Positions 15,275-63,254 of a stretch of 64,000 nucleotides of DNA are shown one piece after another. The stretch lies in the IMG/VR virus record IMGVR_UViG_3300023174_000104, positions 1 to 64,000 of that record; one strand, written 5' to 3'. Numbering within the stretch: the first letter of the stretch is position 1; each line of letters opens with the position of its first letter. The notes beneath the pieces were generated by a model. The model was not told the origin of the DNA and did no database searches. It saw nothing but the letters and a program-made list of their open reading frames with translations. This DNA comes from a virus. The translations under genes were made by a program, and so were the position numbers.

Positions 15275-16186
15275 ATGTCTCTATTACCCGCACCACGCAA
15301 ACCCGTAAACTATCTTAATAATAAAGATATTCTAAAAGAAATACACGAAAGTAAAAACGCATACTGCTGTTTCACTAAACCAGAATATCATCGTTATGAC
15401 TTTATTGTAGATATGCCCCAAGCTTCAATTGAGGATAGTCTAGCATATGCTTTTAAACCCGAAACTATTCAACAGGCAAAAGAAACTAGGGCACTACGTC
15501 TTAGCTTAGAACAAGGATCTAAAGATGCGATTAGCCCGGATTCAATAGAAATCACAGATTTAGTATTTCGTATAATGAATTGGGATCACGTTCCAGTTGC
15601 ACCAAAACAACCACGAAAAACAGTTAAAAAGAAAACAGCAAAGGACATCTTTGAATTTGAAGAACCAGATCCAGATGAAATCTTTGCTGACTTAGAAGAT
15701 ACAACTACTAAAGCTGAAGTGGATGATATGGTTCATGTTAAAGTTAACTTTCCCCCATTCCAACATTACAAAATTGATAGTAACAACACATTTTATTGCG
15801 TAGGCAAAAGTCATTGGGAAGGTGACTTAGAGACTGGTCATTTCAATAAAGAACATGGTAAAATCACAAACAAACTCGCCCGTATGTATATTATGATGTG
15901 CGAAAAATATGCAATGAAATATAATTGGCGTGGGTATACTTACCGAGATGAAATGCAAAATAGTGCAATACTTCAACTTACATACGTCGGTCTACGTTTC
16001 AATGAGGCTAAATCAGCTAACCCATTCGCTTATTATACTGCGGCAATTACTAATAGTTTCTGTCGTGTATTAAACACAGAAAAAAGAAATCAAAACATAC
16101 GTGATGACATTTTAGAAATTAACGGCTTAGCGCCTTCTTGGTCTAGGCAGGGAGGCACCAGCGGACAGAGTAGTTATGACGAATAA
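15275..16186 (+). CDS. gp55: Late-transcription sigma factor, T4 gp55-like
   Basis: NYLNNKDILKEI at the N-terminus and NWRGYTYRDEM...FNEAKSANPFAYYT gp55 core motifs. ATG 15275 has an AAGGA SD. Confidence 0.85.
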   Translation: MSLLPAPRKPVNYLNNKDILKEIHESKNAYCCFTKPEYHRYDFIVDMPQASIEDSLAYAFKPETIQQAKETRALRLSLEQGSKDAISPDSIEITDLVFRIMNWDHVPVAPKQPRKTVKKKTAKDIFEFEEPDPDEIFADLEDTTTKAEVDDMVHVKVNFPPFQHYKIDSNNTFYCVGKSHWEGDLETGHFNKEHGKITNKLARMYIMMCEKYAMKYNWRGYTYRDEMQNSAILQLTYVGLRFNEAKSANPFAYYTAAITNSFCRVLNTEKRNQNIRDDILEINGLAPSWSRQGGTSGQSSYDE

Positions 16187-16758
16187 AGCATTCTCCAACC
16201 TCTATATGTTGGAAATATTCCTCGTACTAGTCTACTAACAGCACCTCTATCATATCCATATTTTGATGCAAAATCATATTGTGTTGTTTCTATAACTTCC
16301 CCTGTTTTTATATTTTCAAATTGACGCAAGGTAGGTATAAATCTACTATTTTCTTTTCCTTTATTTTTATCTGTAAATGGATTTATATAATCAGGTTTAG
16401 ATATTCTATCTTTAGTATGGCTTGAACCATCTTTGCGTTTTTGCCATGGATGTTTTCCTTTCTCTATTCTTTTTTTATGATTAAGTTTAGCAATCTCAGA
16501 GATTTCCTCGCCGGACCATTTCATTTTTGCCGCTATTCTAAGGCATGCGGCAAAATCTCCTTGACTATAGTGAATGTCATAATGAGCCTGTATAGTGATG
16601 GCTATAAGATTTTCAGGATTATTGTTATGACTGTTTCCATCTACGTGGTGGATTTCGTATTTTCGTCCATCCAGTTCTTTTGGAATGAGTCCATGGTGTT
16701 GTTCATATATTTTACGATAGTTAACCTTGGTCCGTCTTTGTTTATTATAAATAGTCAT
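16174..16758 (-). CDS. Free-standing HNH homing endonuclease (family A) with C-terminal HTH-like domain
   Basis: YRKIYEQHHG...YEIHHVDGNSHNNNPENL...HYDIH. Start reassigned to ATG 16758 (AAGGAG SD). Confidence 0.85.
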   Translation of the reverse strand: MTIYNKQRRTKVNYRKIYEQHHGLIPKELDGRKYEIHHVDGNSHNNNPENLIAITIQAHYDIHYSQGDFAACLRIAAKMKWSGEEISEIAKLNHKKRIEKGKHPWQKRKDGSSHTKDRISKPDYINPFTDKNKGKENSRFIPTLRQFENIKTGEVIETTQYDFASKYGYDRGAVSRLVRGIFPTYRGWRMLYSS

Positions 16759-16824
16759 GCTGATTGCTCCTTCAAGCGTTAGAGTAGTTGGGCATTCCAC
16801 TGCCGCGAACTACACTATTATTTA
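16748..16824. promoter_or_regulatory. Conserved endonuclease leader element, copy 1, flanked by convergent TAAATA motifs
   Basis: Minus strand: TAAATA-N5-GTAGTTCGCGGCAGTGGAATGCCCAACTACTCTAACGCTTGAAGGAGCAATCAGC-ATG. Plus-strand TAAATA at 16748-16753. Confidence 0.85.
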
Positions 16825-16846
16825 TCACAACAGGGTAAATTACTTC

Positions 16847-16875
16847 TTTACTTCCATCATCAAATAAGTTAAACT
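16847..16875 (+). promoter_or_regulatory. Sigma70/T4-early-like promoter for gp47
   Basis: TTTACT-17 nt-TAAACT; the gp47 ATG is 7 nt downstream with no SD. Confidence 0.45.
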
Positions 16876-16882
16876 AGCATCT

Positions 16883-17896
16883 ATGTCAAATCTATTCAAA
16901 AAAGCGGCAGTAATGACTGACCTTCACATTGGTTTAAAATCAAATAGTATAGTTCACAATGAGGACTGTTTAAATTTTGTTAAATGGTTTATAGCAAAGG
17001 CAAAAGATGAAGGATGTGATACTGCAATTATATGTGGTGATTGGCATAATCACCGAGCTAGTATTAATATACATAGTCTACATTACTCTATGCAATGTTT
17101 AGAACTATTAAATGCTAGTTTTAATCAAGTATTCTTTTTAACAGGAAACCATGATCTATACTATAGAGAAAAGCGTGATATTCATAGTGTATTATGGGCA
17201 GGATATCTTCCAAATGTTCATGTTATTAATGACATTTTTACTGAAGGCGATGTGACTATTTGTCCATGGTTAGTAGGTGACGAGGCAAAACAAGTTAAAA
17301 AAATAAAATCCAAATATACATTTGGTCATTTTGAACTTCCCAATTTTTATATGAATGCACAAATATTAATGCCCGATCACGGAGACATTAATATGGACGA
17401 CTTTTCAAATACAGATTTGGTATTCAGTGGTCATTTCCATAAACGTCAAAGCAAAAAGAACGTATGGTATATTGGTAATGCTTTCCCACATAACTATGCT
17501 GACGCAGGTGATGATGCACGTGGTATGATGATACTAGAATGGGGTGAAGAACCTGTATTTCATAGTTGGCCACGTCAACCATTATATCGTGTGTATAAAC
17601 TAAGTGATGTACTAGAAAACCCTCAAGGCTTGCTATTGATTGACAGTCATGTTAGAGTACATCTTGATATTGATATTAGCTATGAAGAAGCAAACTTCAT
17701 ACGTGAAAGTTTTATACCAGAACATAAACTACGTGAGATGGCATTGATTCCCATTAAAGCAGAACAAACAGAGATAGCTGGTTCAGATGGACTTAAGTTT
17801 GAATCAGTTGACCAAATCGTCATTGACCAAATAAATTCTATTGAATCAAATACTTTTGACAAAAAACTATTGTTGGACATTTATAATAACATATGA
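16883..17896 (+). CDS. gp47: Recombination endonuclease subunit (Mre11/SbcD-like)
   Basis: Metallophosphoesterase motifs TDLH, GDWH, GNHD, GHFE, SGHFH; coupled to gp46. Confidence 0.9.
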   Translation: MSNLFKKAAVMTDLHIGLKSNSIVHNEDCLNFVKWFIAKAKDEGCDTAIICGDWHNHRASINIHSLHYSMQCLELLNASFNQVFFLTGNHDLYYREKRDIHSVLWAGYLPNVHVINDIFTEGDVTICPWLVGDEAKQVKKIKSKYTFGHFELPNFYMNAQILMPDHGDINMDDFSNTDLVFSGHFHKRQSKKNVWYIGNAFPHNYADAGDDARGMMILEWGEEPVFHSWPRQPLYRVYKLSDVLENPQGLLLIDSHVRVHLDIDISYEEANFIRESFIPEHKLREMALIPIKAEQTEIAGSDGLKFESVDQIVIDQINSIESNTFDKKLLLDIYNNI

Positions 17897-19968
17897 GCAT
17901 TACCCTAAAGAATATTACCCTTCGCAACTTCCTTTCAATTGGACAAATTACACAAGCTGTTAGTTTTGATAGACAAGACCTAACACTTATTCTAGGTGAG
18001 AACTTAGACTTAGGTGGTGATGGTGCTCGTAATGGTACAGGTAAAACTACCCTGATTCAGGGTCTCTCCTACGCCTTGTTTGGTATACCAATCAATAGCA
18101 TTCGTAAAGATAACTTAGTTAATCGTACAAATGGTAAAGCTATGATGGTTACACTAGAGTTTAACGTTGATGGCATTGATTATAAGATTGAACGTGGTCG
18201 TAAGCCAAACATTCTTAAGTTCTATGTAAACAACGATTTACAGAAAAACACGGACGATGCACAGGGTGAGAACAAAGAAACACAACAAGCTATTGAACGT
18301 GTGATTCATATGAGTGCCGATATGTTCAAACATATCGTTGCATTGAACACATATTCTGAACCATTCTTGGCACTAAAAACTAATGACCAACGTGATATCA
18401 TTGAGCAATTGCTTGGTATTACTTTGTTATCAGAAAAAGCTGAGGTCATTAAGAACATGATCCGTGATAGTAAAGATGGTATACAAGCTGAAGAATATCG
18501 TGTTAAGGGCATTGAAGAAGCTAACAAACGTGTAGCTGAACAGATTGAAGCACTAAAGCGTAGACAGAAATTATGGGTAGCAAAACATAATGAAGATTTA
18601 GATAAACTAGTACATGAGTATGATGATTTGTCCAAAATTGATATTGATCATGAGTTACTAAAACATAAAGAGTTACTAGTTTGGAACAAACAAAAACAAG
18701 ACCAAGATACTTACAATGCATTGGTTGCTCGTTCAACTGCTTGGCAACAAAAGCATGATACAGATGTTTCAATAGCACATAAGGCTTACTCACTTAAAAA
18801 TGAGTATGATATTGAAGCTGAACTTAAAGCTTGGACTGATTTAAAAGAATGGCTACATGATGAATCTGAACAAAAGTCTATTGCTACTAACATTGATACC
18901 CTAACCAAAAGTATCACAAAAGAAAAAAAATTAATTGATAAATTGGTTCGGGAAGTTAAAGAGTTAGAGGATCACAAGTGTTATGCTTGTGGTCAAGACT
19001 TCCATGATGATAAACATTTAGAGGTCACATTAGAAAAAACTACTCTACTTGAGAACGCACGTGCTGAATTAGTTCATTTTGAGACACAATTATCAATCAA
19101 TGAATCATTAGTTAGTGTGTTAGGACCTAAGCCTACACCCTCATACAAGACAGAAGCGGAAGCCATTCGTCATAGTGGTGATGTGTCTAACTTAAAGAAA
19201 GTTTGGGAAGATAAGAAACAAGAATCTAATCCATTTAGTGAACAACTAAATGAATTGACTCCTATAGTTTTAGGTGCTCAACCTGTCACTCATTACGACA
19301 CAGAAGCAGAAGCCATTGAACATCGTAGTAAAGTTAATACATTAATGACACAGATAGCTACAAAAGGTGCTGAGAGTGATCCATATGCTGAACAGGTAGT
19401 AGAGATGGAAAGTAATGCATTACAAGCTATTGATTTTGAAGCTATCAATAAATTAACAAGAACAATGGAACATCAGAAGTTCTTGTTAGATTTGTTAGTT
19501 AGTAAAGATAGTTTTGTTCGTAAAAAGATTATTGACCAGAACTTAAGTTACTTGAATGCACGATTGACACATTACTTAGATAAGATTGGTTTACCCCATC
19601 AGGTTATATTCCAGAACGATTTACAAGTTGAGATTACTGAACTCGGGCGTGAACTTGACTTTGATAACTTAAGTCGTGGTGAACGTAACCGTTTGATTCT
19701 TGGCTTGAGTTTTGCGTTTAGAGATGTATGGGAAAGTTTATATCGCCCAATCAATACATTGTTTATTGATGAGTTGATTGATAGCGGTCTTGACACAATG
19801 GGTGTTGAGAATGCTATTGCGATTCTTAAAGACATGAGCCGACGCAGACAGAAAAGTATTTGGCTTGTAAGTCACCGTGAAGAATTAGCTGGGCGTGTGC
19901 CTAGTGTTCTTAAAGTAATTAAAGAAGGTGGTTTTACCTCATATTCAACTACAACTGATATTATGTAA
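17893..19968 (+). CDS. gp46: Recombination ATPase subunit (Rad50/SbcC-like)
   Basis: Walker A NGTGKT, zinc hook CYACG, signature LSRGE, Walker B FIDE, H-loop VSH. Confidence 0.92.
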   Translation: MSITLKNITLRNFLSIGQITQAVSFDRQDLTLILGENLDLGGDGARNGTGKTTLIQGLSYALFGIPINSIRKDNLVNRTNGKAMMVTLEFNVDGIDYKIERGRKPNILKFYVNNDLQKNTDDAQGENKETQQAIERVIHMSADMFKHIVALNTYSEPFLALKTNDQRDIIEQLLGITLLSEKAEVIKNMIRDSKDGIQAEEYRVKGIEEANKRVAEQIEALKRRQKLWVAKHNEDLDKLVHEYDDLSKIDIDHELLKHKELLVWNKQKQDQDTYNALVARSTAWQQKHDTDVSIAHKAYSLKNEYDIEAELKAWTDLKEWLHDESEQKSIATNIDTLTKSITKEKKLIDKLVREVKELEDHKCYACGQDFHDDKHLEVTLEKTTLLENARAELVHFETQLSINESLVSVLGPKPTPSYKTEAEAIRHSGDVSNLKKVWEDKKQESNPFSEQLNELTPIVLGAQPVTHYDTEAEAIEHRSKVNTLMTQIATKGAESDPYAEQVVEMESNALQAIDFEAINKLTRTMEHQKFLLDLLVSKDSFVRKKIIDQNLSYLNARLTHYLDKIGLPHQVIFQNDLQVEITELGRELDFDNLSRGERNRLILGLSFAFRDVWESLYRPINTLFIDELIDSGLDTMGVENAIAILKDMSRRRQKSIWLVSHREELAGRVPSVLKVIKEGGFTSYSTTTDIM

Positions 19969-20016
19969 TTTTTCAAAAGTTTGATAAATAAGAAGTGAAT
20001 TCAATAAGGAGAACTT

Positions 20017-20667
20017 ATGTTTATCAATAACGAAGCTTATAATAGATATTATGAAATTATTGCGAAGGCAGAATCAATATGTCCCCGCAATATAAAAAAG
20101 ACAGAAGCTATGAAAATCAGGGGTTATATTGAAGATCATCATATCATACCTAAATGTTTAGGCGGTGCTGATGTTCTTGCTAATAAAGTTTGGTTGACAG
20201 CCGAAGAGCATTTTATGTGTCACAAATTATTAACTGAAATGACTGTAGATAATTCTAATGGTAAAATGTGGAGTGCATTATGGCGAATGATGAATAAGCA
20301 AAGCAAAAATCAAGATCGTGATTACCTCATTGATGCAAAGGAATATGCTATAGCTAGAGAACAAAACGCAAAAAATCATAGCATTAGAATGAGGGGTGAG
20401 TTAAATCCATTTCATAACAAAAAGCATACTTCTACAACAAAAGAAACAATGTCGGCTAAGAAAAAAGGAAAATCATATGAAGAAATTTTTGGAGCAGATA
20501 AAGCAAAAGAAATGAAAGAACGCAGAAGCACAGAGGGGCTCGGTAAGTTAAAAGGGCCGCAAAAGAAAATAGAGTGTCAACATTGTGGGGCCGTAGGTGG
20601 TTTTGGTATAATGAAGCGATGGCACGGTGACAAATGTAAATTTATCGGCACCAATCATACAGCATAA
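20017..20667 (+). CDS. Free-standing HNH homing endonuclease (family B, MobE-like) with NUMOD3-like and C-terminal Zn motif
   Basis: EDHHIIPKCLGG...LTAEEHFMCHKLL, NPFHNKKHT, CQHC...RWHGDKC. TAAATA and AAGGAG upstream. Confidence 0.85.
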   Translation: MFINNEAYNRYYEIIAKAESICPRNIKKTEAMKIRGYIEDHHIIPKCLGGADVLANKVWLTAEEHFMCHKLLTEMTVDNSNGKMWSALWRMMNKQSKNQDRDYLIDAKEYAIAREQNAKNHSIRMRGELNPFHNKKHTSTTKETMSAKKKGKSYEEIFGADKAKEMKERRSTEGLGKLKGPQKKIECQHCGAVGGFGIMKRWHGDKCKFIGTNHTA

Positions 20668-20675
20668 GTATTAAC

Positions 20676-21230
20676 ATGACATCACCACAGAAAGCTAAAG
20701 GATCAGGATTTGAGAGAGAAGTTGCAAAGTTTCTTTCTGACCTATATGGCGAAAGCTTTATACGAGCACCTGGTTCCGGAGCTTACATTGGTGGTAAAAA
20801 TCAGCATAGAACAGCAGTATTACATGAAGGACAAGTACGTTCTTTCAAAGGTGATATTGTACCCGGTCAGAGTTTCAGTAAGATGAACATTGAATGTAAG
20901 TTTTATGCAGATTTTCCTTTTCACTTACTACTTTCAGGTGACTGTAAAGTAATAAATACATGGATTGAACAATTAATGGATGTTGCCGAAGCCGGCGATG
21001 TAAATTTATTGTTTATGAAGTTTAATAGAAAAGGTCGTTATGTTGCCGTGCAATGCGGCTCAACATGGATAACAGACAATTTTGTCTATTATTCGTCAAG
21101 CAAGTTTGGCGATTGGCTAATCGTTGAATTTGATGACTTTTTTCAACACAACAGTACATTATTAAAAACCTATTCGGCAACACCAGACACCACGTCAAAT
21201 CAAACTGTTATTAATATCCCAACAACATAA
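20676..21230 (+). CDS. Holliday junction resolvase-like PD-(D/E)XK nuclease (Hjc-like)
   Basis: KAKGSGFEREVA...RAPGSGA...GDIV...IECK motif order. Confidence 0.75.
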   Translation: MTSPQKAKGSGFEREVAKFLSDLYGESFIRAPGSGAYIGGKNQHRTAVLHEGQVRSFKGDIVPGQSFSKMNIECKFYADFPFHLLLSGDCKVINTWIEQLMDVAEAGDVNLLFMKFNRKGRYVAVQCGSTWITDNFVYYSSSKFGDWLIVEFDDFFQHNSTLLKTYSATPDTTSNQTVINIPTT

Positions 21231-21239
21231 TAAAATAAA

Positions 21240-21606
21240 AATTCGTTGTCTGAGTTTGTCAGACCTCCTTGAAGATGCGTGTAAGAACGCTGATGGATCT
21301 GGAGTAAGCATAGTTAGTGATAACTATGGAATACCGAGAGGGCAATCGACAAAGCGAACCCTCAACAAGCTCACCCCTACTTTATCTTTGCGGGGTGAGA
21401 AGTGCGTTGCTGAAGAATCAATTGAAAGATCATTGATAGCTTCACTACAGTCCCATAACTTTACAGAGCAACCGGTAGCGTTTAGTAGCATCAAATAGCT
21501 AATTAGACGGGGAAAAGATGACAAAGGATGACGGGCATGGCAAATACCCTTAACCATTGGTAGTGCTGAATAGCACTACCATGGCTTTCTAAGCGGCAAT
21601 TGAATT
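21240..21606 (+). ncRNA. Putative large structured non-coding RNA (~365 nt)
   Basis: Locally GC-richer intergenic block with at least 8 hairpins, e.g. catagtta/taactatg 21309-21328, ctcacccc/ggggtgag 21370-21399, tggtagtgct/agcactacca near 21558-21581. The 5' and 3' ends can pair. G-U pairs favour the plus strand. Confidence 0.65.
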
Positions 21607-21649
21607 AATTAAATATAAACTCTTTATAAACAATAGATTACCGTAAAAA

Positions 21650-21693
21650 CTAAGAACGAACGAAGTGAGTTCTTAGATGAACGAAGTTCATCT
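21650..21693. other. Twin inverted repeats, one with a C-GAA-G triloop, after an AT-rich tract
   Basis: ctaagaac/gttcttag (21650-21676) and agatgaac-GAA-gttcatct (21675-21693). Confidence 0.7.
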
Positions 21694-21738
21694 TTACAAT
21701 AGAAATAAGAATATATAAACCTAATTTTCAATAAATGA

Positions 21739-22236
21739 CTAATTACGGGCTCTCTTACTTAAACTAATACGTGCTTTTGTTATATCACTAGTGGGCCCTT
21801 TTTTTCTGCCTAATAACTTTTCACGTATTTTTGTTTTTGTTTCTTCACTCAATTGCTTTCTAGTTGATCCTTTTTGTCTTTCAGATTGTCTTTGATTTGA
21901 TTCCGGTGAATGTTTAATTACTCCTTTTAAACCCTTATTCCAAGCATGTTGACCTTTTCTGGCGCCGCCGTCACCCTCTTCTGGTTTTAAATTTGCCCAT
22001 GTAACATCTTCAACTACATTCCATAAATTACTATAATGTTGGCCCCAGTATTTTATTTCTGAGTTGTCATTACATTCTTTAAGAATTTCTGTAGTTACGT
22101 CATAGCCGTGTTTTTTTATATGGCGCATCCATATAGTACCTGAACCTTTATATTCATGAGGGTTGGGATTTATTGTTTTTCCAAGATATTTAAGACCAGT
22201 AATGTTGTGGGTCTTTTTATACAAATAAATAGTCAT
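21739..22236 (-). CDS. Free-standing GIY-YIG (Seg-like) homing endonuclease with NUMOD3-like repeats
   Basis: IYLYKKTHNITGLKYLGKT...YKGSG...WANLKPEEGDGG, then AWNKG, HSPES and LSEETK repeats. Start ATG 22236 with AAGGAG. Confidence 0.85.
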   Translation of the reverse strand: MTIYLYKKTHNITGLKYLGKTINPNPHEYKGSGTIWMRHIKKHGYDVTTEILKECNDNSEIKYWGQHYSNLWNVVEDVTWANLKPEEGDGGARKGQHAWNKGLKGVIKHSPESNQRQSERQKGSTRKQLSEETKTKIREKLLGRKKGPTSDITKARISLSKRARN

Positions 22237-22303
22237 GCTGATGCTCCTTAATAGCGTTAGAGTAGTTGGGATGTACGAAGTCCGCGAACTACACAAATAT
22301 TTA
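22226..22303. promoter_or_regulatory. Conserved endonuclease leader element, copy 2, flanked by convergent TAAATA motifs
   Basis: Minus strand: TAAATA-N5-GTAGTTCGCGGACTTCGTACATCCCAACTACTCTAACGCTATTAAGGAGCATCAGC-ATG. Plus-strand TAAATA at 22226-22231. Confidence 0.85.
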
Positions 22304-22317
22304 TTCCAAATCAGTAC

Positions 22318-22494
22318 TTAGAAGTATGGTAGCCCTGATTTCTTAGTAATATCTAAGTTATCTTCTATTAATTTTGATATGGCTTTACGTTCATCACTAG
22401 ACATATTCAACACATCTTCATATGAAGCACCTCCACGCATATGCCAAGCCATACGTATAGCATGTTCTTTTATGTTAGTAATCTCTGACTCCAT
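22318..22494 (-). CDS. Small 58-aa ORF (gp51-like/tail-chaperone C-terminal part), probably also the -1 frameshift extension of the upstream gene
   Basis: Not in the ORF track. Reads MESEITNIKEHAIRMAWHMRGGASYEDVLNMSSDERKAISKLIEDNLDITKKSGLPYF; the frame stays open back to the slippery site at 22548-22554. Confidence 0.65.
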   Translation of the reverse strand: MESEITNIKEHAIRMAWHMRGGASYEDVLNMSSDERKAISKLIEDNLDITKKSGLPYF

Positions 22495-22541
22495 ATTGTC
22501 AATAAGCTTCTGGATATCTTCAGAGGTAAGATATAGAAGCT

Positions 22542-23363
22542 TTAACCGAAAAAATCGGTTACATTAAGTGTAAGAGTCTGTTCATATTGATGTTGGCAGT
22601 GGATACACTTTACCATTAATGGTTTAAGTTGAGCACTTTCACGTAATTTAATTGCTGTATTTTTTAAATTATCAAATGTTTTTTTATCCGTATTTCTTAA
22701 AAAATCATTGATATGTTCTTTTTCAGTAACAATTTCGTTAGGTGTAGAAATTGAATCAATGGTTTCTGTAATTAACTTCATACTTAGTTCATTAAGATTT
22801 TTCATTGTTTGTCCGGAAATACGTAGTCGTTCTTCACCGTCAGTAATATTTTCAATATTTCTGATTGTTTTTTCAATTTCAAATTGAACTAAGTTAATTT
22901 CATTTACCTTTTTATATGATATTGGATTGAATTTAATTATTAAGTCATTAATTTTAATCACATCATCATATTCTGGTTTTAAGTTACTAAGTAAACCTAC
23001 CAAGTTAATATTATATGATGCATCTTTTTCACATGAGGGGCATACAGATTCTACGTCTAACATATTTCCACTAGAAGCTACACGTATAGATATTAGTATT
23101 GCATCTAAATCTATTGCGGGTATAGCCCATGGATCTTTAATATTAGGAACACAGCTTTTAATAATTTCAGTTATTGCAATACCATTGAATAGTGCGTCCG
23201 GGGTTTTGCTTGTAATTTCATCTATAGCAGTCATGGGATATACCGGTAATTCTTTATTATCAGGTAGATCAATGGTGCCCTCCGGATAATACTTACCTTC
23301 GCTAGGTAATTTTACATAGATTGCAGGTCTACGAAAATATTGTTTTAGTGGGTTAGTGTTCAT
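22542..23363 (-). CDS. Baseplate hub assembly chaperone, gp26-like
   Basis: YVKLPSEGKYY...YPMTAIDE...DLDAILISIRVAS, CPSC and CIHC Zn pairs, ends DFFG. Start ATG 23363 with GGAGA SD. Confidence 0.75.
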   Translation of the reverse strand: MNTNPLKQYFRRPAIYVKLPSEGKYYPEGTIDLPDNKELPVYPMTAIDEITSKTPDALFNGIAITEIIKSCVPNIKDPWAIPAIDLDAILISIRVASSGNMLDVESVCPSCEKDASYNINLVGLLSNLKPEYDDVIKINDLIIKFNPISYKKVNEINLVQFEIEKTIRNIENITDGEERLRISGQTMKNLNELSMKLITETIDSISTPNEIVTEKEHINDFLRNTDKKTFDNLKNTAIKLRESAQLKPLMVKCIHCQHQYEQTLTLNVTDFFG

Positions 23364-23393
23364 TTTTTCTCCAAATATGTGTTTTTTGTAATC

Positions 23394-23414
23394 ATAAATA
23401 CTATTAATATTTAG
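23394..23414. promoter_or_regulatory. Opposed late promoters serving the divergent gp26-like and tape measure genes
   Basis: ATAAATA on plus (23394-23400) and CTAAATA on minus (23408-23414). The T4 late consensus is TATAAATA. Confidence 0.6.
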
Positions 23415-23427
23415 TGGGTAAAACAGT

Positions 23428-26196
23428 ATGGATAATAATATTGAAATTGATGAATTAATTAAAGCTCTTAGAGAAGCCACTGAGGTAGAACGGGAAAAAA
23501 CTGAAGTTACTAAAAGGTCTGCAGAACAGCAAGAAAAAGACCTACAAAACGCAATTGAACAATCTGCTGGATATACTAGAATTAACGGTAAACTAGTTAA
23601 ACAAGAAGAACAGCGAATTCAACTAGAAGCCAAACTTAATAAAGAATTAGAACAACAATTTGGAGCAGGAAAATTACGTGCTGATAAACAAGAAGCATTA
23701 TTTAATCAGCAATTAAAGCAACTAAACTACATGATTGATAGCAATGGTAAACTTGCTAAAACTAGTGTAGAACTTAATTCTTATCAACAAAAATTAATTA
23801 CTAGTGTAAAGAAACTAGCTGAAGAGGACGAAAGACGGTTAAAAAGTAAAGATAATATAATCCCTGAGTTAAAAAAGGGTTTAGCAGAGATAGGCAAAGC
23901 ATCATTTGGTGTTGCTACTAATCTAGCAAAAGGTGAAACCAGTTTTACTACGTTATTTCCATTAATGGATTCATTGGCTAGTGCGACTAGTGCTGTGGGT
24001 AAAGGTCTTTTAGGCATGATACCAGTTGTTGGTGGATTTGCCGCAGCTTTTTTTGAAGCTAGTACAAAAATAGCATTGGAAGGAAGTAAATTTCTTATAG
24101 AAATGCTAGAGAAAAGTGTTAAAGACTTTCAAGAAATGGGAAATGCGGGAGCTTTAATTAGTGGAGGAATGACCGCTCTTAATGATCAGATTTTAAAAGC
24201 CGGCATGACAACTGACGGGTTCAAAAAAGTAATAAAAGAAAGTGCTACTACATTGGCAGCTTGGAAGGGAACAGTGGGAGAAGGTGCTAGAGTATTTTCT
24301 GAGGCTATAGGAGAGTTATCATTAAAAGGCGCAGGTGATGACTTACGAAAATTAGGTTTCACTGCGGATCAAATGGGTGAATCGGCAGCGGCATTTTTAG
24401 AGCAAGAAATACGTTTGGGTCGTGGTAGAAACATGTCTCAAAAACAATTGGTAGAAGGTACTATCCGATATGCCAAAGAATTAGATTTACTAAGTAAAGT
24501 TACTGGGTTGAGCAGAGAGGATGCTCAAAAGCAACGTGATGAATTATTATCTGATAGTAGATATAGAGCCTCAATTGAGGGGATGAATAAAGAAAATCAA
24601 AACGCCCTTAACGGTTTGATTATGAGATTTAAAGATCCAAACTTAAAACGTGGTTTAATGGATTTGGCATCCGGAGCTATTACTACAAAAGACGCCGGTA
24701 TGTTAATCACTTCATTTGGTGACACAGCCTCTGATGCCATTCAATCTCTTAAAGATGCTTCACCCGAAGAGTTACCTAAAGTTCTTGATAAGGTAATGCT
24801 TGATTTTCAAAATTCTGCGAAAACCAATAAAGAGATGTTTGGTGAAGTATACAAATATTTAGAACCGGGTACAATGATTAATGCCGCAACAATTTTTGAT
24901 ATTGCATCCGGTAAATATACAACATCTATGGTACAGGCAAAAGAATCACAAGATGCACAGATAAAAAATACAGATAAATTAACTGAACAAACAATTGATG
25001 CTCAGAAAAATATGGAACTATTAAGTAGGAACATGAGAGAGTTGGCAAATGAACAGTTGCCAAAAGCATCAGAAGCAGTTGCATATTTTACTAAAAAATT
25101 ATATGAAGCAGTTTCAACAATTTTTGGTGGTCCTGTAGGAGAAGGCAAAACTATTGCGACTAAAGAAGAAGCAGATAAAAATGTTGAAAATGCACAGCGA
25201 AAATTAGAAAATGCTCAAAAAAATAATGATAAAGTAGCTGAAACAAAAGCACGGCAAGAACTTGAAGCCGCAAAAAATGCTAGAGATTTAGCAGAAATTG
25301 CTAGAAGAAATAGACAACAACCCGGCGCCGGTAAACCAGTAACACCAAACGGAACTACTAATCCCGCACCTACTCCTACTCCTACTCCTACTCCTACTCC
25401 TGTACCGGGCACTACACCTGCAAAACCTGCGCCTACTCCTGTACCAGGTACTAAACCTTCAACACCCACTCCTACTCCTGCACAGGGCACTAATCCTAAT
25501 AAAAAAACTGCAGACCAATTAGTTACATTTGGTTCAGGATCAGGTGATAAAGCTCACTTTGATATGTTAGACCCAACTGTACGTGATTCATTTATGAAAA
25601 TGATTGAGGAATATGGAAAATCTGTAAAAATTACCTCATCATTCCGAAGTTTTGAAGAACAAAAAGCATTATGGGATAAGGCCAGATCAGGCCCAACTCC
25701 TGATGTACGTATGCAAGACAATGGCATGCCGGTAGCAAGACCGGGCACAAGTAAGCATGAACAAAAAATGGCTATAGATTTATCAAAGTCTGATGCATTA
25801 GACTTTTATAACACAACTAAACGTAATGGGTCTGATCTGTTGAACAAGTATGGATTTAACTACGATCCAATAAAAGATGCTGTACATTTTGAAAAGGCTA
25901 GATTTGGTGGTATGTTTGATGGACCAGAATCTGGATACCCGGTTATGCTTCACGGTGAAGAAGCTGTAGTACCTAAACCTGATTTCACTGAACTTAAACA
26001 AACGATGAGTGAAGTATCTAAAAGTAGTTTAGCAACTGCAATGCCAAATCCTGTAACACAGAATAATGTTACCGATCCTGTACAGTCATTAAAAGCTCTA
26101 CATAATATTATGTCAGACAAATTTGATCAAATGATAAGTGTAATGGAAAAAAGCACCGATATACAATATAGAATATTAAACAATTCAATGGTTTAA
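23428..26196 (+). CDS. Tape measure protein with Pro/Thr linker and C-terminal M15/VanY-like peptidoglycan peptidase
   Basis: Long helical Ala/Leu/Gln-rich body, PTPTPT linker, then ITSSFRSFEEQ...PGTSKHEQKMAIDL...DAVHFE (SxHxxxxAxD...H Zn-peptidase motif). Confidence 0.75.
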   Translation: MDNNIEIDELIKALREATEVEREKTEVTKRSAEQQEKDLQNAIEQSAGYTRINGKLVKQEEQRIQLEAKLNKELEQQFGAGKLRADKQEALFNQQLKQLNYMIDSNGKLAKTSVELNSYQQKLITSVKKLAEEDERRLKSKDNIIPELKKGLAEIGKASFGVATNLAKGETSFTTLFPLMDSLASATSAVGKGLLGMIPVVGGFAAAFFEASTKIALEGSKFLIEMLEKSVKDFQEMGNAGALISGGMTALNDQILKAGMTTDGFKKVIKESATTLAAWKGTVGEGARVFSEAIGELSLKGAGDDLRKLGFTADQMGESAAAFLEQEIRLGRGRNMSQKQLVEGTIRYAKELDLLSKVTGLSREDAQKQRDELLSDSRYRASIEGMNKENQNALNGLIMRFKDPNLKRGLMDLASGAITTKDAGMLITSFGDTASDAIQSLKDASPEELPKVLDKVMLDFQNSAKTNKEMFGEVYKYLEPGTMINAATIFDIASGKYTTSMVQAKESQDAQIKNTDKLTEQTIDAQKNMELLSRNMRELANEQLPKASEAVAYFTKKLYEAVSTIFGGPVGEGKTIATKEEADKNVENAQRKLENAQKNNDKVAETKARQELEAAKNARDLAEIARRNRQQPGAGKPVTPNGTTNPAPTPTPTPTPTPVPGTTPAKPAPTPVPGTKPSTPTPTPAQGTNPNKKTADQLVTFGSGSGDKAHFDMLDPTVRDSFMKMIEEYGKSVKITSSFRSFEEQKALWDKARSGPTPDVRMQDNGMPVARPGTSKHEQKMAIDLSKSDALDFYNTTKRNGSDLLNKYGFNYDPIKDAVHFEKARFGGMFDGPESGYPVMLHGEEAVVPKPDFTELKQTMSEVSKSSLATAMPNPVTQNNVTDPVQSLKALHNIMSDKFDQMISVMEKSTDIQYRILNNSMV

Positions 26197-26223
26197 TACT
26201 AAATACTAAACAAAGTATCTACT

Positions 26224-28014
26224 ATGACCTATAAAAAACGTTTCTCAAATAAATCTGGCATGTCCAGTCCCATCTCTGGGTTTAATAATAACACCGGAGC
26301 TTGGAATGGTAGTCCTGGGCAAAACGGTAGTGATACCGGAGGATATAACAATGCTGAAATGGGCTATAAAAACTATCGTAGCCGTCTTCCAGAAGTATAT
26401 ACAGGTCATCCAAATCGTATTGAACGATATAATCAATATGAAATGATGGATGTTGATGCTGAGATTAATGCATGTTTGGACATCATTAGTGAATTCAGTA
26501 CACAAACAAATGACCATAATAAAACTCCCTTTGATTTAGATTTCAAAGACGATCCAACACAACATGAAGTTGAACTATTAAAAACTCAACTACAACAATG
26601 GTGTAAACTCAATGAGTTTGACACTAGAACATTTAAAATCTTCCGTAATACTATTAAGTTTGGTGATCAGGTATTTGTACGTGACCCGGAAAACTTTAAG
26701 TTATATTGGATAGATATGACTAAAGTTATTAAAGTTATTGTTAACGAAAGTGAAGGTAAAAAGCCCGAACAATATGTTATTAAAGATATTAACATTAACC
26801 TACAAAACTTAAGTGTAGCACAAAAAACAAATACAGACTTTGCCGCTAATCCAGCAACTGGTTTAGGTGGTACAGGTGGCGGAGCACAAGGTGGTGGCTA
26901 TACAGTTCCAAGTATGCCATATAATACATCAGGTAGTCGTTTTACATTAGGTCAAAGTGAAAGTGCTATTGATGCTAAACATATTGTTCATCTAAGCTTA
27001 ACAGAAGGTCTTGACCGCTTTTGGCCATTTGGTCAAAGTATTTTAGAAAACATCTTTAAAGTCTATAAGCAAAAAGAATTACTAGAAGATGCGGTATTAA
27101 TTTATCGTGTACAACGTGCTCCGGAACGTAGAATGTTTAAGATTGATGTTGGTAACATGCCAAGTCACTTAGCTATGGCTTTTGTTGAACGTATTAAGAA
27201 TGAGATTCATCAAAGACGTATTCCAAGTACACATGGTGGTGGTAGTGTAGTTGATGCTAGTTATAACCCATTAAGTATGAATGAAGATTACTTCTTCCCG
27301 GTTACTGCTGACGGAAGAGGATCAAGTGTTGAAGTATTACCCGGCGGACAGAATTTGGGTGAGATTGATGACTTGCGTTATTTTAACAACAGATTAGCAC
27401 GTGGTTTACGTGTGCCAAGTAGCTATCTTCCAACTGGGCCTGATGATAATCCTACTCCATTAAGTGATGGACGTGTTGGTACAGCTATGATTCAGGAGTT
27501 TCGTTTCAATCAATATTGCGAACGACTACAAAAGTATATTAGTCAAAAGTTAGATGAAGAATTTAAGTTATTCTTACGTTGGAGAGGGTTGAATATTGAT
27601 AGTGGTTTATTCCAATTACAGTTTAACCCACCGCAAAACTTTGCCGCTTATCGTCAAAGTGAATTAGATACTGCACGTATTGGTTCATTTAGTGCTATTG
27701 AACAGTATCCATATATAAGTAAGCGTTTTGCATTAGAGAGATTCTTGGGATTAACTGAAGAAGAAATTACTAAAAACGAAAAGATGTGGCGTGAAGAAAA
27801 TGACAAAGAGATTGAGATTGAGCCACAAGGTAATGATTTACGTAGTATTGGTGTATCAGTGGGTGATATTGAATCTGATACCCAAACCGGTGAAGATATG
27901 AATACACCTGAACCAGAAGATGGTTTAGATGGTATGGAAGTAGCCGGACCTGTTGGTAATGAAGCTGGAGGCATGGCAGGAAATGTGCCTGGTGGTGCTC
28001 CTGGACAGATATAA
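26224..28014 (+). CDS. gp20: Portal protein
   Basis: LLEDAVLIYRVQRAPERRMFKIDVGNMP...EDYFFP...LPGGQNLGEIDDLRYF, T4 gp20 signature. Confidence 0.95.
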   Translation: MTYKKRFSNKSGMSSPISGFNNNTGAWNGSPGQNGSDTGGYNNAEMGYKNYRSRLPEVYTGHPNRIERYNQYEMMDVDAEINACLDIISEFSTQTNDHNKTPFDLDFKDDPTQHEVELLKTQLQQWCKLNEFDTRTFKIFRNTIKFGDQVFVRDPENFKLYWIDMTKVIKVIVNESEGKKPEQYVIKDININLQNLSVAQKTNTDFAANPATGLGGTGGGAQGGGYTVPSMPYNTSGSRFTLGQSESAIDAKHIVHLSLTEGLDRFWPFGQSILENIFKVYKQKELLEDAVLIYRVQRAPERRMFKIDVGNMPSHLAMAFVERIKNEIHQRRIPSTHGGGSVVDASYNPLSMNEDYFFPVTADGRGSSVEVLPGGQNLGEIDDLRYFNNRLARGLRVPSSYLPTGPDDNPTPLSDGRVGTAMIQEFRFNQYCERLQKYISQKLDEEFKLFLRWRGLNIDSGLFQLQFNPPQNFAAYRQSELDTARIGSFSAIEQYPYISKRFALERFLGLTEEEITKNEKMWREENDKEIEIEPQGNDLRSIGVSVGDIESDTQTGEDMNTPEPEDGLDGMEVAGPVGNEAGGMAGNVPGGAPGQI

Positions 28015-28027
28015 GATAAATAAATAT

Positions 28028-28252
28028 ATGAAATTATTTGAGATGTTTACTCCTGCTATTGAAGGTTATCAAGATGTTGAGTCTGATAACAGCAAACCAA
28101 AGTGGAGAGAAAGCCGCAAAACTAAATTAACATTACGTCAGATTCGTAAATTGCGTAAGATGAATGATGTTAGAAATTATGAAAAGGCTAACTATCTTAA
28201 AAAGATTCATGCACAATATAGTCAGCCAAAACCTGATCAACCTCAACTATAA
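28028..28252 (+). CDS. Small basic head-module protein
   Basis: 74-aa ORF MKLFEMF...RKTKLTLRQIRKLRKM right after the portal; TAAATA 5 nt before the ATG. Confidence 0.65.
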   Translation: MKLFEMFTPAIEGYQDVESDNSKPKWRESRKTKLTLRQIRKLRKMNDVRNYEKANYLKKIHAQYSQPKPDQPQL

Positions 28253-28255
28253 TAG

Positions 28256-28834
28256 TTAAATTCCTATTATCCAACCCTTAACTGAATTTAATTTTCCTCT
28301 AACTAATTGGCTTATGTTACCTTGAGATGATTCTAGGTTGTATTTTTTAATAAAGTTAGACATTGATAATCTTTCAGTTTTTCCCGATTCAATATGTTTC
28401 CAATTATGAATTTCTCCGTTTTTTCTTTTGGGAATAGATTTCTTTTTAGGGATTTGTCCCGGTTTTAGAAAATGATGTGTGCCATTTTGAACTCTATCTG
28501 ATGCATGGGACGTACCGTCTTTCCTTCGCATAAGATTATGCGTTCCATTTTCAATTCTTTTTAAATTCTGTAAACTGTTTAATTCAGCTATCTGATTATA
28601 AGGTAATTTCATTTTTTGTGCTAATAAAAAACAAGCACCAAAATCTTGTTGAGAATAATGAATATCATAATGTTCTTTAAGTGATACTGCTATTATATTA
28701 TTTGGCTTATTATTGTAGTGATTCCCGTCAATATGATGGATTTCATAACTACGACCGTTATCTTCTTTTGGAATAGGACCGTAATGATTTTCATAAATCT
28801 TGCGATATTTGGTTGTTCCGCAATAAATACACAT
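28256..28834 (-). CDS. Free-standing HNH homing endonuclease (family A)
   Basis: YRKIYENHYG...YEIHHIDGNHYNNKPNNI...HYDIH; paralog of 16174-16758. Confidence 0.85.
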   Translation of the reverse strand: MCIYCGTTKYRKIYENHYGPIPKEDNGRSYEIHHIDGNHYNNKPNNIIAVSLKEHYDIHYSQQDFGACFLLAQKMKLPYNQIAELNSLQNLKRIENGTHNLMRRKDGTSHASDRVQNGTHHFLKPGQIPKKKSIPKRKNGEIHNWKHIESGKTERLSMSNFIKKYNLESSQGNISQLVRGKLNSVKGWIIGI

Positions 28835-28902
28835 GCTGATTGCTCCTTGTAAGCGTTAGAGTAGTTGGGGATTCCCGTCCCGTGAACTACATTTTCTACT
28901 TA
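28824..28902. promoter_or_regulatory. Conserved endonuclease leader element, copy 3, flanked by convergent TAARTA motifs
   Basis: Minus strand: TAAGTA-N6-GTAGTTCACGGGACGGGAATCCCCAACTACTCTAACGCTTACAAGGAGCAATCAGC-ATG. Plus-strand TAAATA at 28824-28829. Confidence 0.85.
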
Positions 28903-29000
28903 TTCTCCTCAAAAACGTAAAAAATACAGCGTTATTAGACATTTTTTGTTAACTGTGCATAAGTACAATACACAAAGCCATTTACTTAGGAGAAAATTCA

Positions 29001-32871: not shown

Positions 32872-32925
32872 GGCTATAGTTAAGTAGTAGTGTATTATAT
32901 TGAATTAACAAACATAAATAATATT

Positions 32926-33672
32926 ATGAACAAATATGAAAAATGGTACGCTGCCATAACAAAACGAGGTCAACATAGACATATTGATGATTATACTGAA
33001 ATACATCATATACTTCCTGAATCATTAGGCGGACCAGACACTCCGGAAAACAAAACAACATTAACTGCAAGAGAACATTTCATATGTCATTGGTTATTAA
33101 CAAAGATATACAAAGACGGTGAAGCACATTGGAAAATGTTGAATGCTATTCGTATTATGCGAGCCGAAAACAAAAATCAACAACGATATTTTACTAAAAT
33201 AACCTCGAGGGTTTATTCTAATCTTAAAAAAGAATACTCACAGTTACAGAGTATTAAATTTTCAGGTTCTGGCAACGGTATGTATGGAAAAAATCATACA
33301 AAAGAAACTAAAAAAACAATAGGAGATGCTAATAGAGGTCGTACTCAACCAATGGAGGAAAAAATAAAACAAAAGTTAGCAATTACCGGAAGAAAACGAA
33401 ATCCTTTTACTGATGAATGGAAAGAAAAAATGTCGTCGGCTAAACAAGGAGAAAAGAATAATATGTTTGGAAAAAACCACACTGATGAAACTAAACAGAA
33501 ACAGCGTGAGAAAGCAACAGGAAGAAAACAATCACCTGAAACAGTTGCTAAAAAATCAGAAGCTATCAGAGGATTAAAGCGTGAAAAGAAACTATGTCCG
33601 CATTGTAATAACGAAGTAGCAGTCAATGGTTATGTAAGATGGCACGGTGACAATTGTAAGCAAAAAGCATAA
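32926..33672 (+). CDS. Free-standing HNH homing endonuclease (family B) with NUMOD3-like repeats
   Basis: EIHHILPESLGG...LTAREHFICHWLL, NGMYGKNHT, NNMFGKNHT, CPHC...RWHGDNC. Confidence 0.85.
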   Translation: MNKYEKWYAAITKRGQHRHIDDYTEIHHILPESLGGPDTPENKTTLTAREHFICHWLLTKIYKDGEAHWKMLNAIRIMRAENKNQQRYFTKITSRVYSNLKKEYSQLQSIKFSGSGNGMYGKNHTKETKKTIGDANRGRTQPMEEKIKQKLAITGRKRNPFTDEWKEKMSSAKQGEKNNMFGKNHTDETKQKQREKATGRKQSPETVAKKSEAIRGLKREKKLCPHCNNEVAVNGYVRWHGDNCKQKA

Positions 33673-56087: not shown

Positions 56088-56153
56088 AGATTAAATTGGA
56101 TTAAATATATAGATGGGCTACACAAGTAGACCAATATAAAAAGAGAAATATAC

Positions 56154-62445: not shown

Positions 62446-62489
62446 TTAACTACTAATATTATTAGTCTTTGATTAAGATAAATAATAAT

Positions 62490-63254
62490 ATGAATTATAA
62501 AAAACACTACGATATGTTAATTGAACGGAGTAACAACCGAATACTTGAAGGCTATGTTGAAAAACATCACATAGTTCCCAAGTGTTTAGGCGGGACTGAT
62601 GAAAAAAGCAACATATCAATATTAACACCTGAAGAACATTTTTTAGCACATCAGTTATTAATTAAAATGTATCCTGGTAATAGGGATTTAATATATGCTA
62701 CTCAATTAATGACAGCTCACCAAACATCTGCTAGAGTGAACAATAAACTGTTTGGTTGGTTAAGAAAACAATGTGCGTTAGCAATGTCAACTCAGACTAA
62801 AAATTGGATATCAAAAAACGGTCATCCGCGAGGTATGTTAGGTAAAAAACATGATGTTAACAACATTGATGCTATAACAGCTGGCATAAAAAAGACAGCA
62901 TTGGAAAAAAGGATTGAAGTACACACATATAACTTAGATGGATCTTTTTATAAAACATATAACTCGTTGATTGAATGTGCCAAAGATTTAGAAACAAATC
63001 CCTCAAATGTTAAGTACACCGCAGATGGTAACTTTGGGCATTGTAAGAATAAACAAATACGATATGACTATGTTGAATCTATGGCTGCGTATACTAAACC
63101 TTCTCCTCTAAGAGGAAAACAAAAATCAGAAGAACACATACTAAACTTGAAGAAAGCAAGAGAACAAAGATATACTTGTGTACACTGTGGATTTATTTCA
63201 GGCAAATCTACAATAACAAGATTTCACAACAACAACTGTAAAACAAAATTATGA
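62490..63254 (+). CDS. Free-standing HNH homing endonuclease between nrdA and nrdB (MobE-like)
   Basis: YVEKHHIVPKCLGG...LTPEEHFLAHQLL; same position as T4 mobE; stop overlaps the nrdB start (ATGA). Confidence 0.88.
   Translation: MNYKKHYDMLIERSNNRILEGYVEKHHIVPKCLGGTDEKSNISILTPEEHFLAHQLLIKMYPGNRDLIYATQLMTAHQTSARVNNKLFGWLRKQCALAMSTQTKNWISKNGHPRGMLGKKHDVNNIDAITAGIKKTALEKRIEVHTYNLDGSFYKTYNSLIECAKDLETNPSNVKYTADGNFGHCKNKQIRYDYVESMAAYTKPSPLRGKQKSEEHILNLKKAREQRYTCVHCGFISGKSTITRFHNNNCKTKL

Follow-up and report, generated by a model that had tools for sequence, protein, structure and literature searches.

A portable two-hairpin cassette at homing endonuclease genes of freshwater jumbo phages and a candidate antisense RNA over the ribosome-binding site

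Introduction

No selfish genes of large phages are more common than homing endonucleases, whose restraint has been worked out only in a few cases from T4 and Aeh1, all of which are masks of the ribosome-binding site (RBS) on the sense strand. The DNA analyzed here (64,000 nucleotides, positions 1 to 64,000 of the IMG/VR record IMGVR_UViG_3300023174_000104; referred to as the window) carries three homing endonuclease genes that each begin directly behind the same short, structured cassette, and this cassette has at either end a sequence resembling a phage late promoter. The question that the locus raises is what such a cassette does there. A preliminary description, made from the window alone, proposed a portable control module that is shared by unrelated nuclease genes and from which both the nuclease mRNA and an antisense RNA starting over the RBS would be made. 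The antisense idea has passed all comparative tests reported below, but the scheme proposed for pairing of the Shine-Dalgarno (SD) sequence and the "invariant" outer stem have not stood in the form in which they were given.

A 96.7-kb IMG/VR contig, rated 28% complete by CheckV, contains the window. The phage is a T4-superfamily myovirus, the window encoding a Portal_T4 gene, a T4 baseplate protein, and a gp47-like phosphoesterase (Pfam), and it is present in metagenomes from lakes, drinking water, and an estuary. The nearest cultured relatives with respect to the portal protein are the jumbo phages PA5oct, Atu_ph07, XaC1, and Phosso (49–54% amino-acid identity). As far as can be told from sequence comparison, a cassette of about 80 bp heads hundreds of nuclease genes in related phages, and its bearers are a clade of uncultured freshwater jumbo T4-superfamily phages.

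The Cassette and Its Three Copies in the Window

Read on the minus strand, each copy in the window consists of TAA(A/G)TA, 5–6 nt, a first hairpin (H1, 30–31 nt), one U, a second hairpin (H2, 23–24 nt), one C, the ATG, 2 nt, and TATTTA. Three copies on this strand had been claimed, and all three were recovered at the same positions: a gapped consensus pattern matched three times in the window versus 0.00 times expected (100 shuffles), and a covariance model run on the 96.7-kb contig returned the three copies with 82.9–94.4 bits (E ≤ 1e-18) and nothing else credible. A further match of the model at 56135–56220 on the minus strand had an E-value of 0.19 and was discarded as noise.

Copy 1 extends from 16748 to 16824 (minus strand; 94.4 bits, E = 7.5e-22). 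Its sense box TAAATA (16824–16819) is followed by a spacer (16818–16814) and by the predicted sense +1, which is the G at 16813. This G is also the first base of H1 (16813–16784), whose outer arms are at 16813–16808 and 16789–16784. H2 (16782–16760) has its 5′ arm at 16782–16775, a loop with the GG of the SD at 16774–16769, and its 3′ arm at 16768–16760. Then come the C at 16759, which is the complement of the predicted antisense +1, the ATG at 16758–16756, and the hexamer of the putative antisense promoter, TATTTA in minus-strand reading, at 16753–16748. In copy 2 (22226–22303, minus strand; 89.5 bits), the corresponding parts are TAAATA at 22303–22298, the sense +1 G at 22292, H1 at 22292–22262, H2 at 22260–22238, the C at 22237, the ATG at 22236–22234, and TATTTA at 22231–22226. 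Copy 3 (28824–28902, minus strand; 82.9 bits) has the variant sense hexamer TAAGTA at 28902–28897, a spacer of 6 nt, the +1 G at 28890, H1 at 28890–28861, H2 at 28859–28836, the C at 28835, the ATG at 28834–28832, and TATTTA at 28829–28824. Thus TAARTA lies 5, 5, and 6 nt ahead of the stem in copies 1, 2, and 3, and TATTTA, which is a TAAATA on the plus strand, lies 5 nt past the end of CAGC in all three, both as first described.

Two Covarying Hairpins

Covariation was analyzed on an alignment of 142 distinct cassettes (alignment A3) with a two-helix model of 18 pairs. Cells are paired in 89% of the cases in this model versus 17–47% when the partners are slid along each other. Double changes are found in 9 of the 18 pairs, and doubly changed cells number 242 as compared to 55 ± 5.7 in shuffles, of which 0 of 500 reach 242. 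Both hairpins therefore covary strongly, and the comparison indicates that both helices are real and under selection.

The outer stem of H1, GTAGTT/AACTAC, had been called invariant, which is correct within this genome but not for the family, where it covaries. When H1 was left free in the search, 66 distinct hairpins with 22 arm haplotypes were found, for example GTGAGT/ACTCAC, GAGGGT/ACCCTC, and GCCGAT/ATCGGC; the invariant palindromic outer stem had emerged because the first two search anchors fixed it. The compensatory changes reported for the inner stem are borne out.

In H2, CUAAYGCU pairs with AGCRUCAG over 8 bp; the loop contains the GG of the SD and the 3′ arm its AG, and the ATG lies 1–3 nt past the helix. 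This covarying helix replaces the pairing of CTCT and GCT segments with AGGAGC that had been suggested for the same region. Alternatives are GCC/GGC, GUC/GAC, UGAUU/AAUCA, and ACAUU/AAUGU, and the outer end may read UUUA…CAAC for UCUA…CAGC. In a small subclass (L146, L166, L171, L185, L203, and L214), the start codon lies within the 3′ arm of H2 (e.g., CUAGACA/UGUCCAG), so that the helix encloses both SD and AUG; a spacing of 4–5 nt from CAGC to TATTTA is still kept there.

The Strand That Carries the Fold

On the gene strand, the non-Watson-Crick cells of H2 are A·C (or C·A) in 245 cases and G·U in 1, with 19 other mismatches. The bias holds when the invariant third pair is left out (A·C 103 versus G·U 1), when H2 is counted by haplotype (17 versus 1), and in the outer stem of H1 (10 versus 0). 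Because an A·C on the gene strand is a G·U on the complement, the preserved fold is that of the strand opposite the nuclease gene. Calculated energies of H2 are −6.5 kcal/mol for the antisense and −2.75 kcal/mol for the sense strand; H2 is more stable on the antisense strand in 170 of 171 cassettes, the difference in shuffled controls being −0.7 ± 1.5. Judged from the mismatches, the selected fold belongs to the antisense strand, and H2 of the mRNA strand is weakened by A·C.

These counts are not what one expects if the cassette were a sense-strand leader only, in which H1 stabilizes the mRNA at its 5′ terminus, H2 weakly attenuates the RBS, TATTTA is an AU-rich translation element or a stretch conserved by recombination, and no functional antisense RNA is made. 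If the mismatches merely served to weaken the helix, every kind should occur, and those other than A·C and G·U are only 19. Moreover, the exact TATTTA is fixed relative to H2 rather than to the ATG and matches the box used elsewhere by the phage, including its tolerated variant (see below). It should be noted that hairpins in front of homing endonuclease genes are familiar from other work (PMC2988022, PMC2677866), that with the predicted sense +1 at the first base of H1 the mRNA would indeed have a 5′-terminal hairpin, and that the SD is in part hidden by H2 (mean unpaired probability 0.31). A sense-strand leader as the whole explanation nevertheless appears to us quite unlikely.

The strand bias alone cannot separate RNA from single-stranded DNA, since G·T is the least destabilizing mismatch in DNA hairpins, too. 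The fold could thus form in the single-stranded plus strand during replication, recombination, or homing and serve the mobility of the unit, at one edge of which the cassette is located. We consider this very unlikely: the promoter boxes flank both helices at exactly the distance from promoter to start, the 3′ edge of the unit has no counterpart, and homing by double-strand-break repair requires no hairpin.

The Two Promoter Boxes

In the window, N(A/C)TAAATA, including NATAAATA, is found 15–27 nt ahead of the starts of many structural genes, and in the intergenic 10% of the window ATAAATA is strongly enriched. This motif corresponds to the NATAAATA late promoter of other T4-like phages, among them the group of cyanophage S-PM2 (PMC2984593). 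Sites of the sigma-70 type show no enrichment (50 versus 55.9 expected). In T4, the late box spans −13 to −6, which leaves 5 nt between the box and +1 (PMC2988020). This is the spacing found at both ends of the cassette. The upstream box reads TAAATA in 165 of 171 cassettes and, in 141 of 169, is separated by 5 nt from the G with which H1 begins; the downstream box is an exact TATTTA in 161 of 171 and is 5 nt away from CAGC in 132 of 169. The one variant that is tolerated, TAAGTA/TACTTA, occurs at both boxes.

TATTTA lies within the first codons of the nuclease gene, and a coding constraint has to be considered. It is located 0, 1, or 2 nt from the ATG, however, so that all three reading frames are used (in 27, 25, and 117 cassettes), and the N-termini vary even within a single HNH cluster (MTIY, MCIY, MYLP, and MIFI). 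Being set by its distance from the helix and independent of the frame, TATTTA is therefore an element at the nucleotide level and not a consequence of the protein sequence. At the level of motifs, an opposite-strand promoter is thus present at the 5′ end of the target open reading frame (ORF). The frame-independent box at promoter-like spacing and the conserved fold on the antisense strand are the two comparative results that speak for the antisense RNA originally proposed.

With this spacing, the predicted sense transcripts start with G in 177 of 177 cassettes and the predicted antisense transcripts with G in 167 and with A in 4. The predicted antisense +1 faces the C of CAGC, 1–3 nt before the ATG. 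The two predicted transcripts overlap over exactly the 55–56-nt leader, including the SD, and each opens with a terminal hairpin. In the window, the predicted antisense RNAs lie on the plus strand: RNA 1 (16759–16826) would start with the G at 16759, 5 nt past TATAAATA (16746–16753), and would fold into the antisense counterparts of H2 (H2′) and then of H1 (H1′), followed by a U-rich tail; RNA 2 (22237–22305) would start 5 nt past AATAAATA at 22224–22231, and RNA 3 (28835–28905) likewise 5 nt past AATAAATA at 28822–28829. In the family, the tail has at least 5 U within 8 nt in 166 of 177 cassettes; it begins with AC or AT, and the H1′ stem is interrupted.

TAAATA and TATTTA are complementary, and they do pair in some minimum-free-energy folds of read-through RNAs. 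A bypass as in the T-even phages and Aeh1, in which long-range pairing of the two boxes masks the start in read-through transcripts and late transcripts escape, was modeled. The classical arrangement does occur in this clade (a GIY-YIG gene in L380 and L408 with the box inside a 10-bp hairpin; see below). The modeled accessibilities of SD and AUG are the same in both forms (0.31/0.44 late versus 0.32/0.43 read-through), the TACTTA variants are uncompensated at the upstream box, and the promoter box is outside both covarying helices, 5 nt upstream of H1. In addition, inverted units, which are the majority, receive no sense read-through from host promoters. We have rejected an I-TevI-type bypass by pairing of the two boxes as extremely unlikely.

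Two observations on late boxes elsewhere in the genome may be added. The head gene at 29001 is preceded in the window by CATAAGTA (28968–28975), where the relatives L296–L299, which lack copy 3, have a box of the CTAAATA type; since copy 3 (28897–28902) uses TAAGTA as well, this genome seems to tolerate TAAGTA as a variant of the late box. Secondly, three HNH genes of one subfamily, which are co-oriented with their surroundings and have no cassette, show the order NATAAATA, exactly 5 nt, and then the ATG (32913–32928 and 62477–62492 in the window, G000:C1:72284-72301 on the contig; N-termini MNKYEKWY, MNYKKHY, and MNYENHY). A late start would fall at or beside the A of the start codon, which makes these genes candidates for leaderless late mRNAs.

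Spread of the Cassette and Its Nuclease Cargo

IMG/VR was scanned with three patterns: a 16-mer at the junction of H1 and H2, H1 alone, and the canonical segment from H2 via the SD to the ATG alone. Each scan gave at least 120 matches, and the family counts in this article rest on the matches listed. Among these, the junction 16-mer was accompanied by the whole cassette in every match, and the two other patterns were so except for a handful of chance matches. The complete order is the (N)ATAAATA late box, 5 nt, H1, the SD-bearing H2, the start codon, and TATTTA.

The 98 distinct ORFs behind the cassette include none that is recognized by Pfam or PHROGs as anything but a homing endonuclease or a DNA-binding module of such an enzyme (HNH_3, HNH, HNH_5, GIY-YIG, SegE_GIY-YIG, NUMOD3, and PHROGs 314, 655, and 12324), and the proposed linkage to nuclease genes thus holds for every recognizable ORF. 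Clustering was done on the N-terminal domains, since single linkage of whole proteins merged all of them via shared DNA-binding modules. The N-terminal domains form at least five clusters, which look unrelated and span HNH and GIY-YIG, and all of these carry the cassette, in agreement with a module common to unrelated nuclease families.

In the window, the gene behind copy 1 (16174–16758, minus strand) encodes an HNH homing endonuclease of 194 aa (HNH_3, 4.7e-10; PHROG 12324); it is inverted with respect to both neighbors, and at its 3′ end it runs into the stop of the plus-strand gene 15275–16186. The gene behind copy 3 (28256–28834, minus strand; 192 aa; Pfam HNH_3, 1.2e-8) is likewise an inverted HNH gene, with the portal region on one side and the head genes on the other. 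The gene behind copy 2 (21739–22236, minus strand; 165 aa), which has the same orientation as its upstream neighbors, encodes a GIY-YIG-like homing endonuclease that was assigned to PHROG 314 ("homing endonuclease," 6e-11). Pfam gave no domain call for this protein itself, and sequence and profile searches of the PDB gave no match; its family aligns with a GIY-YIG group recognized by Pfam (hhalign probability 88%, E = 3e-6). Of the original assignment as two HNH genes and one GIY-YIG gene, the first two are thus HNH_3 by Pfam, while the third is GIY-YIG by profile alignment only.

The cassette and copy 1 found no match in INPHARED (50,697 deposited phage genomes; megablast and blastn). Rfam had no match in the window at the gathering score, and a permissive search gave only noise (E ≥ 1), so that a match to an already described RNA family, which the preliminary description had named as a risk to novelty, was not seen at either threshold. 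The literal motifs of the cassette led in the searchable literature to unrelated primers only. In 185,579 prokaryote genomes, the cassette is on only three short contigs (L213, L214, and L215), which are binned in metagenome-assembled genomes of Bacteroidota (Mucilaginibacter sp., "Bacteroides sp.," and a Bacteroidetes bacterium). The three contigs hint weakly at the host, or they are a binning artifact; a host from the Bacteroidota fits oddly with the strongly conserved GGAG of the cassette.

The cassette is not universal in the clade. In an unbiased sample, two of four endonuclease-like ORFs near portals are without it (L300:6054-6657 and L318:7087-7711); both are co-oriented with a host gene and located immediately behind it. 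There are also decayed units (L117, minus strand, near 408–499; L035:7675-7719; L072; and L055), one consisting of H1 and only the 5′ half of H2 without the SD and the others being cassettes ahead of ORFs of 15–87 aa. These are probably remnants of lost endonucleases.

Insertion Sites and Orientation

Relatives with empty sites show what moves. Copy 3 is absent in L296–L299, whose portals are 94–96% identical in amino-acid sequence, and the insert extends from the stop codon of the nuclease (~28256) to at most 8 nt past the sense box (~28910). The site of copy 1 is empty in 65 of 78 relatives, and comparison with L389 gives an insert of ~16187–16832, which ends just past the box. In both comparisons, the insert at the empty site comprises the ORF, the cassette, and the promoter, and the cassette is therefore part of the moving unit; that it travels with the ORF, as had been claimed, is supported by both sites. 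The ORF being present in some relatives and absent in others between conserved host genes, this is how a free-standing homing endonuclease unit behaves. At the 3′ edge of the insert, neither a cassette copy nor a matching element was found at the copy-1 and copy-3 sites. L296–L299 keep a clean terminator hairpin (stem CAGCAC/GTGCTG and a run of T), which is degraded in the window beside the copy-3 insertion.

At 16187–16882, L380 (1650–1780) and L408, whose gp47-like proteins are 97% and 73% identical, have in the place of copy 1 a different GIY-YIG gene, which is co-oriented. The leader of this gene is of the I-TevI/mobE type: GATAAATA lies inside a 10-bp hairpin (CCCTAAATGA…TCATTTAGGG) with an SD-like AGGG in the 3′ arm. 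The contig of the window has at least five further HNH genes that are co-oriented with the plus-strand operons and cassette-less. With the classical hairpin at co-oriented GIY-YIG genes and the cassette units mostly inverted, it appears that the clade uses a sense-strand mask for co-oriented insertions and the cassette mainly for inverted ones.

Proposed Mechanism and Its Principal Rival

We propose that the convergent late promoters yield the nuclease mRNA and a cis-antisense RNA over the RBS that restrains the nuclease, a reading to which we give somewhat better than even chances. The upstream (N)ATAAATA box would start the mRNA at the first G of H1, and TATTTA in the first codons would direct an opposite-strand RNA that begins with the G facing the last C of CAGC, both boxes firing late. 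The antisense RNA would be complementary to the entire 5′ untranslated region including the SD; its H2′ would begin at nucleotide 2 and hold the anti-SD CCUU in the loop, with H1′ next and then the U-rich stretch. The loop of H2 in the mRNA would expose AAGG and thus face the anti-SD CCUU in the loop of H2′. Pairing with the mRNA leader would occur in cis and probably in trans between copies, and it would block binding of the ribosome and/or trigger cleavage of the duplex (a substrate for RNase III). The selfish nuclease would thereby be kept low, as in the case of RNA-OUT of IS10 or SymR. The outward promoter may also restart transcription into the neighboring host gene, a second role that is considered because most units are inverted inside host transcription units.

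This second role can also be taken as the first. In that case, the cassette would be a bidirectional promoter module, the box in the ORF mainly restarting late transcription of the host gene and the hairpins being the stabilizing leader of the mRNA so formed. The two functions are compatible and not mutually exclusive, and the module is a serious rival, although as the principal explanation we regard it as possible rather than probable. The orientation of the units fits well. The upstream neighbor is divergent in 136 units and co-oriented in 47, with a median of ~48 nt from the sense box to the start of the neighboring ORF, and 99 of 136 divergent spacers are without a TAAATA of their own. In the portal surroundings of 80 related phages (653 kb), the covariance-model matches are anti-oriented to the portal in 4 of 4 cases. 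The copies of the window are anti-oriented to the portal or to most plus-strand neighbors (copy 2 with co-oriented upstream neighbors), and the cassette-less HNH genes of the contig, as mentioned, are co-oriented. The empty site in L389 has a TAAATA just past the upstream stop that is displaced by the copy-1 insertion, and in T4 promoters of host genes are embedded in seg and mob genes (PMC2988022).

What the module leaves unexplained is the placement of the start such that the SD is exactly covered and the location of the anti-SD in a loop. Divergent neighbors at copy 3 and in L327 keep a late box of their own beside the cassette. Above all, TATTTA is kept with a co-oriented upstream neighbor (41 of 43), as at copy 2, as well as with a divergent one (124 of 135), and so, equally, is the bias of the fold toward the antisense strand. 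Since box and strand bias are the same in both orientations, an intrinsic, nuclease-directed role was ranked first. That the outward promoter feeds neighboring genes, as had been suggested in the preliminary description, may be true; it has some support from orientation, but the box is equally conserved where no neighbor could use it.

Several points weigh against restraint of the nuclease by an antisense RNA. The promoter activity of both boxes is deduced from motif, spacing, and analogy. Of 150 units, 99 (66%) have the upstream neighbor on the other strand, 62 have both neighbors there, and only 14 have both co-oriented; together with the divergent spacers lacking a TAAATA, this inversion bias is accounted for at least equally well by an outward-promoter role. 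The sequences share ancestry, and the cell counts given above for covariation and mismatches therefore exceed the number of independent events. A simple terminator scan made no call at H1′, and the U-richness of the tail is the mirror image of the sense promoter; because of this, the antisense RNA may be long rather than small.

The RNA libraries also have to be read with caution. They comprise four metatranscriptome runs from three studies and were used as assembled, unstranded contigs. At copy 2, the cassette-bearing contigs reach a summed depth of 35 at 22241 (X16), and a loose contig end at 22271 (X16) continues into the H1 loop of another copy. Unstranded contigs show only that cassette sequence is in metatranscriptome assemblies, DNA carry-over being possible. 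The same libraries have contigs in four of four runs for 20670–21603 of the window, which is an ORF-poor structured stretch (21240–21606) and the preceding gene; the contigs at 21286–21484 and 21346–21475 have 0 differences, and their summed depth, again unstranded, is among the higher in the 14 kb examined.

The cis-antisense reading can be extended to a network acting in trans, in which each RNA damps all nucleases with a cassette that are present in the cell, those encoded by a co-infecting phage included, and in which the host phage receives a replacement late promoter upon backward insertion. Damping between copies is considered because the copies keep identical sequence on the SD side (blocks of 17–19 nt in copies 1 and 3). 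We hold the network to be unlikely; if it were true, selfish endonucleases would hold one another in check by a multicopy-inhibition or "truce" system.

Relation to Known Systems

Cis-antisense control of a selfish gene is of a known kind, and the cassette itself is absent from Rfam and the searchable literature. A close parallel is IS10/Tn10, in which RNA-OUT (69 nt), a stem-loop, is complementary to the translation-initiation region of the mRNA, blocks ribosomes, and brings about multicopy inhibition in trans (PMC5006887). As in IS10, a gene for a selfish enzyme would have an inward promoter and, just inside, an outward one. In contrast to IS10, the promoters of the cassette are boxes of the phage late type, the predicted overlap is the 55–56-nt leader (35 nt in IS10), the predicted antisense RNA has two hairpins, the cargo are many families of homing endonucleases, and there is no sequence similarity. 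In symE/SymR, a type I toxin-antitoxin system of E. coli, SymR is transcribed from a reverse promoter inside the ORF of a nuclease-like toxin, and its 5′ end covers the SD (PMC3874152). Here, too, the predicted antisense promoter is inside the ORF and the predicted RNA lies over the SD; symE/SymR, however, is chromosomal and SOS-linked, is not portable across unrelated genes, and has no convergent phage late promoters.

Among phage homing endonucleases, I-TevI, I-TevII, I-TevIII, segB, and mobE of Aeh1 have a late promoter inside an RBS-sequestering hairpin that limits expression of the nuclease (PMC2988022). The cassette shares with them a late promoter and an RNA structure immediately 5′ of the gene. 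Their mask acts on the sense strand of read-through transcripts, whereas in the cassette the promoter is outside the helices and the fold appears to be antisense. An RNA antisense to a homing endonuclease gene has been seen experimentally in a T4-like phage: CfrI of cyanophage S-PM2 (~225 nt), which links psbA to F-CphI (PMC2984593). CfrI is a matter of one locus and is not described as a conserved, portable two-hairpin cassette.

Related hairpins are known from the "fractured genes" of the GOS data, where Dassa et al. (2009) found conserved hairpins in the 5′ untranslated region and TATAAATA before GIY-YIG and Vsr-like endonucleases (PMC2677866). The loci are metagenomic and phage-like, including some from a freshwater lake, and have two mutually complementary conserved motifs and a late box; the hairpins are interpreted there as sense-strand masks of the RBS, and neither an antisense promoter nor an analysis of strands is proposed. 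The cassette may overlap these motifs, the comparison being one of descriptions only. Finally, promoter-early stem-loops (PeSLs) of T4-type phages are short modules of promoter and stem-loop that move with variable genes (PMC2839356, PMC4122927); they are sigma-70-type early promoters with terminator stem-loops flanking genes in hyperplastic regions. The cassette, with convergent boxes of the late type and at the 5′ end only, is not a PeSL.

Significance

The covariance model of the cassette (model R1) would define by sequence an RNA family that could be used in the annotation of genomes of uncultured jumbo phages. If the proposed mechanism is true, antisense RNA control, which is known for transposons and type I toxins, would join the repertoire by which homing endonucleases are restrained, and it would explain how inverted insertion of their genes inside late operons is tolerated.

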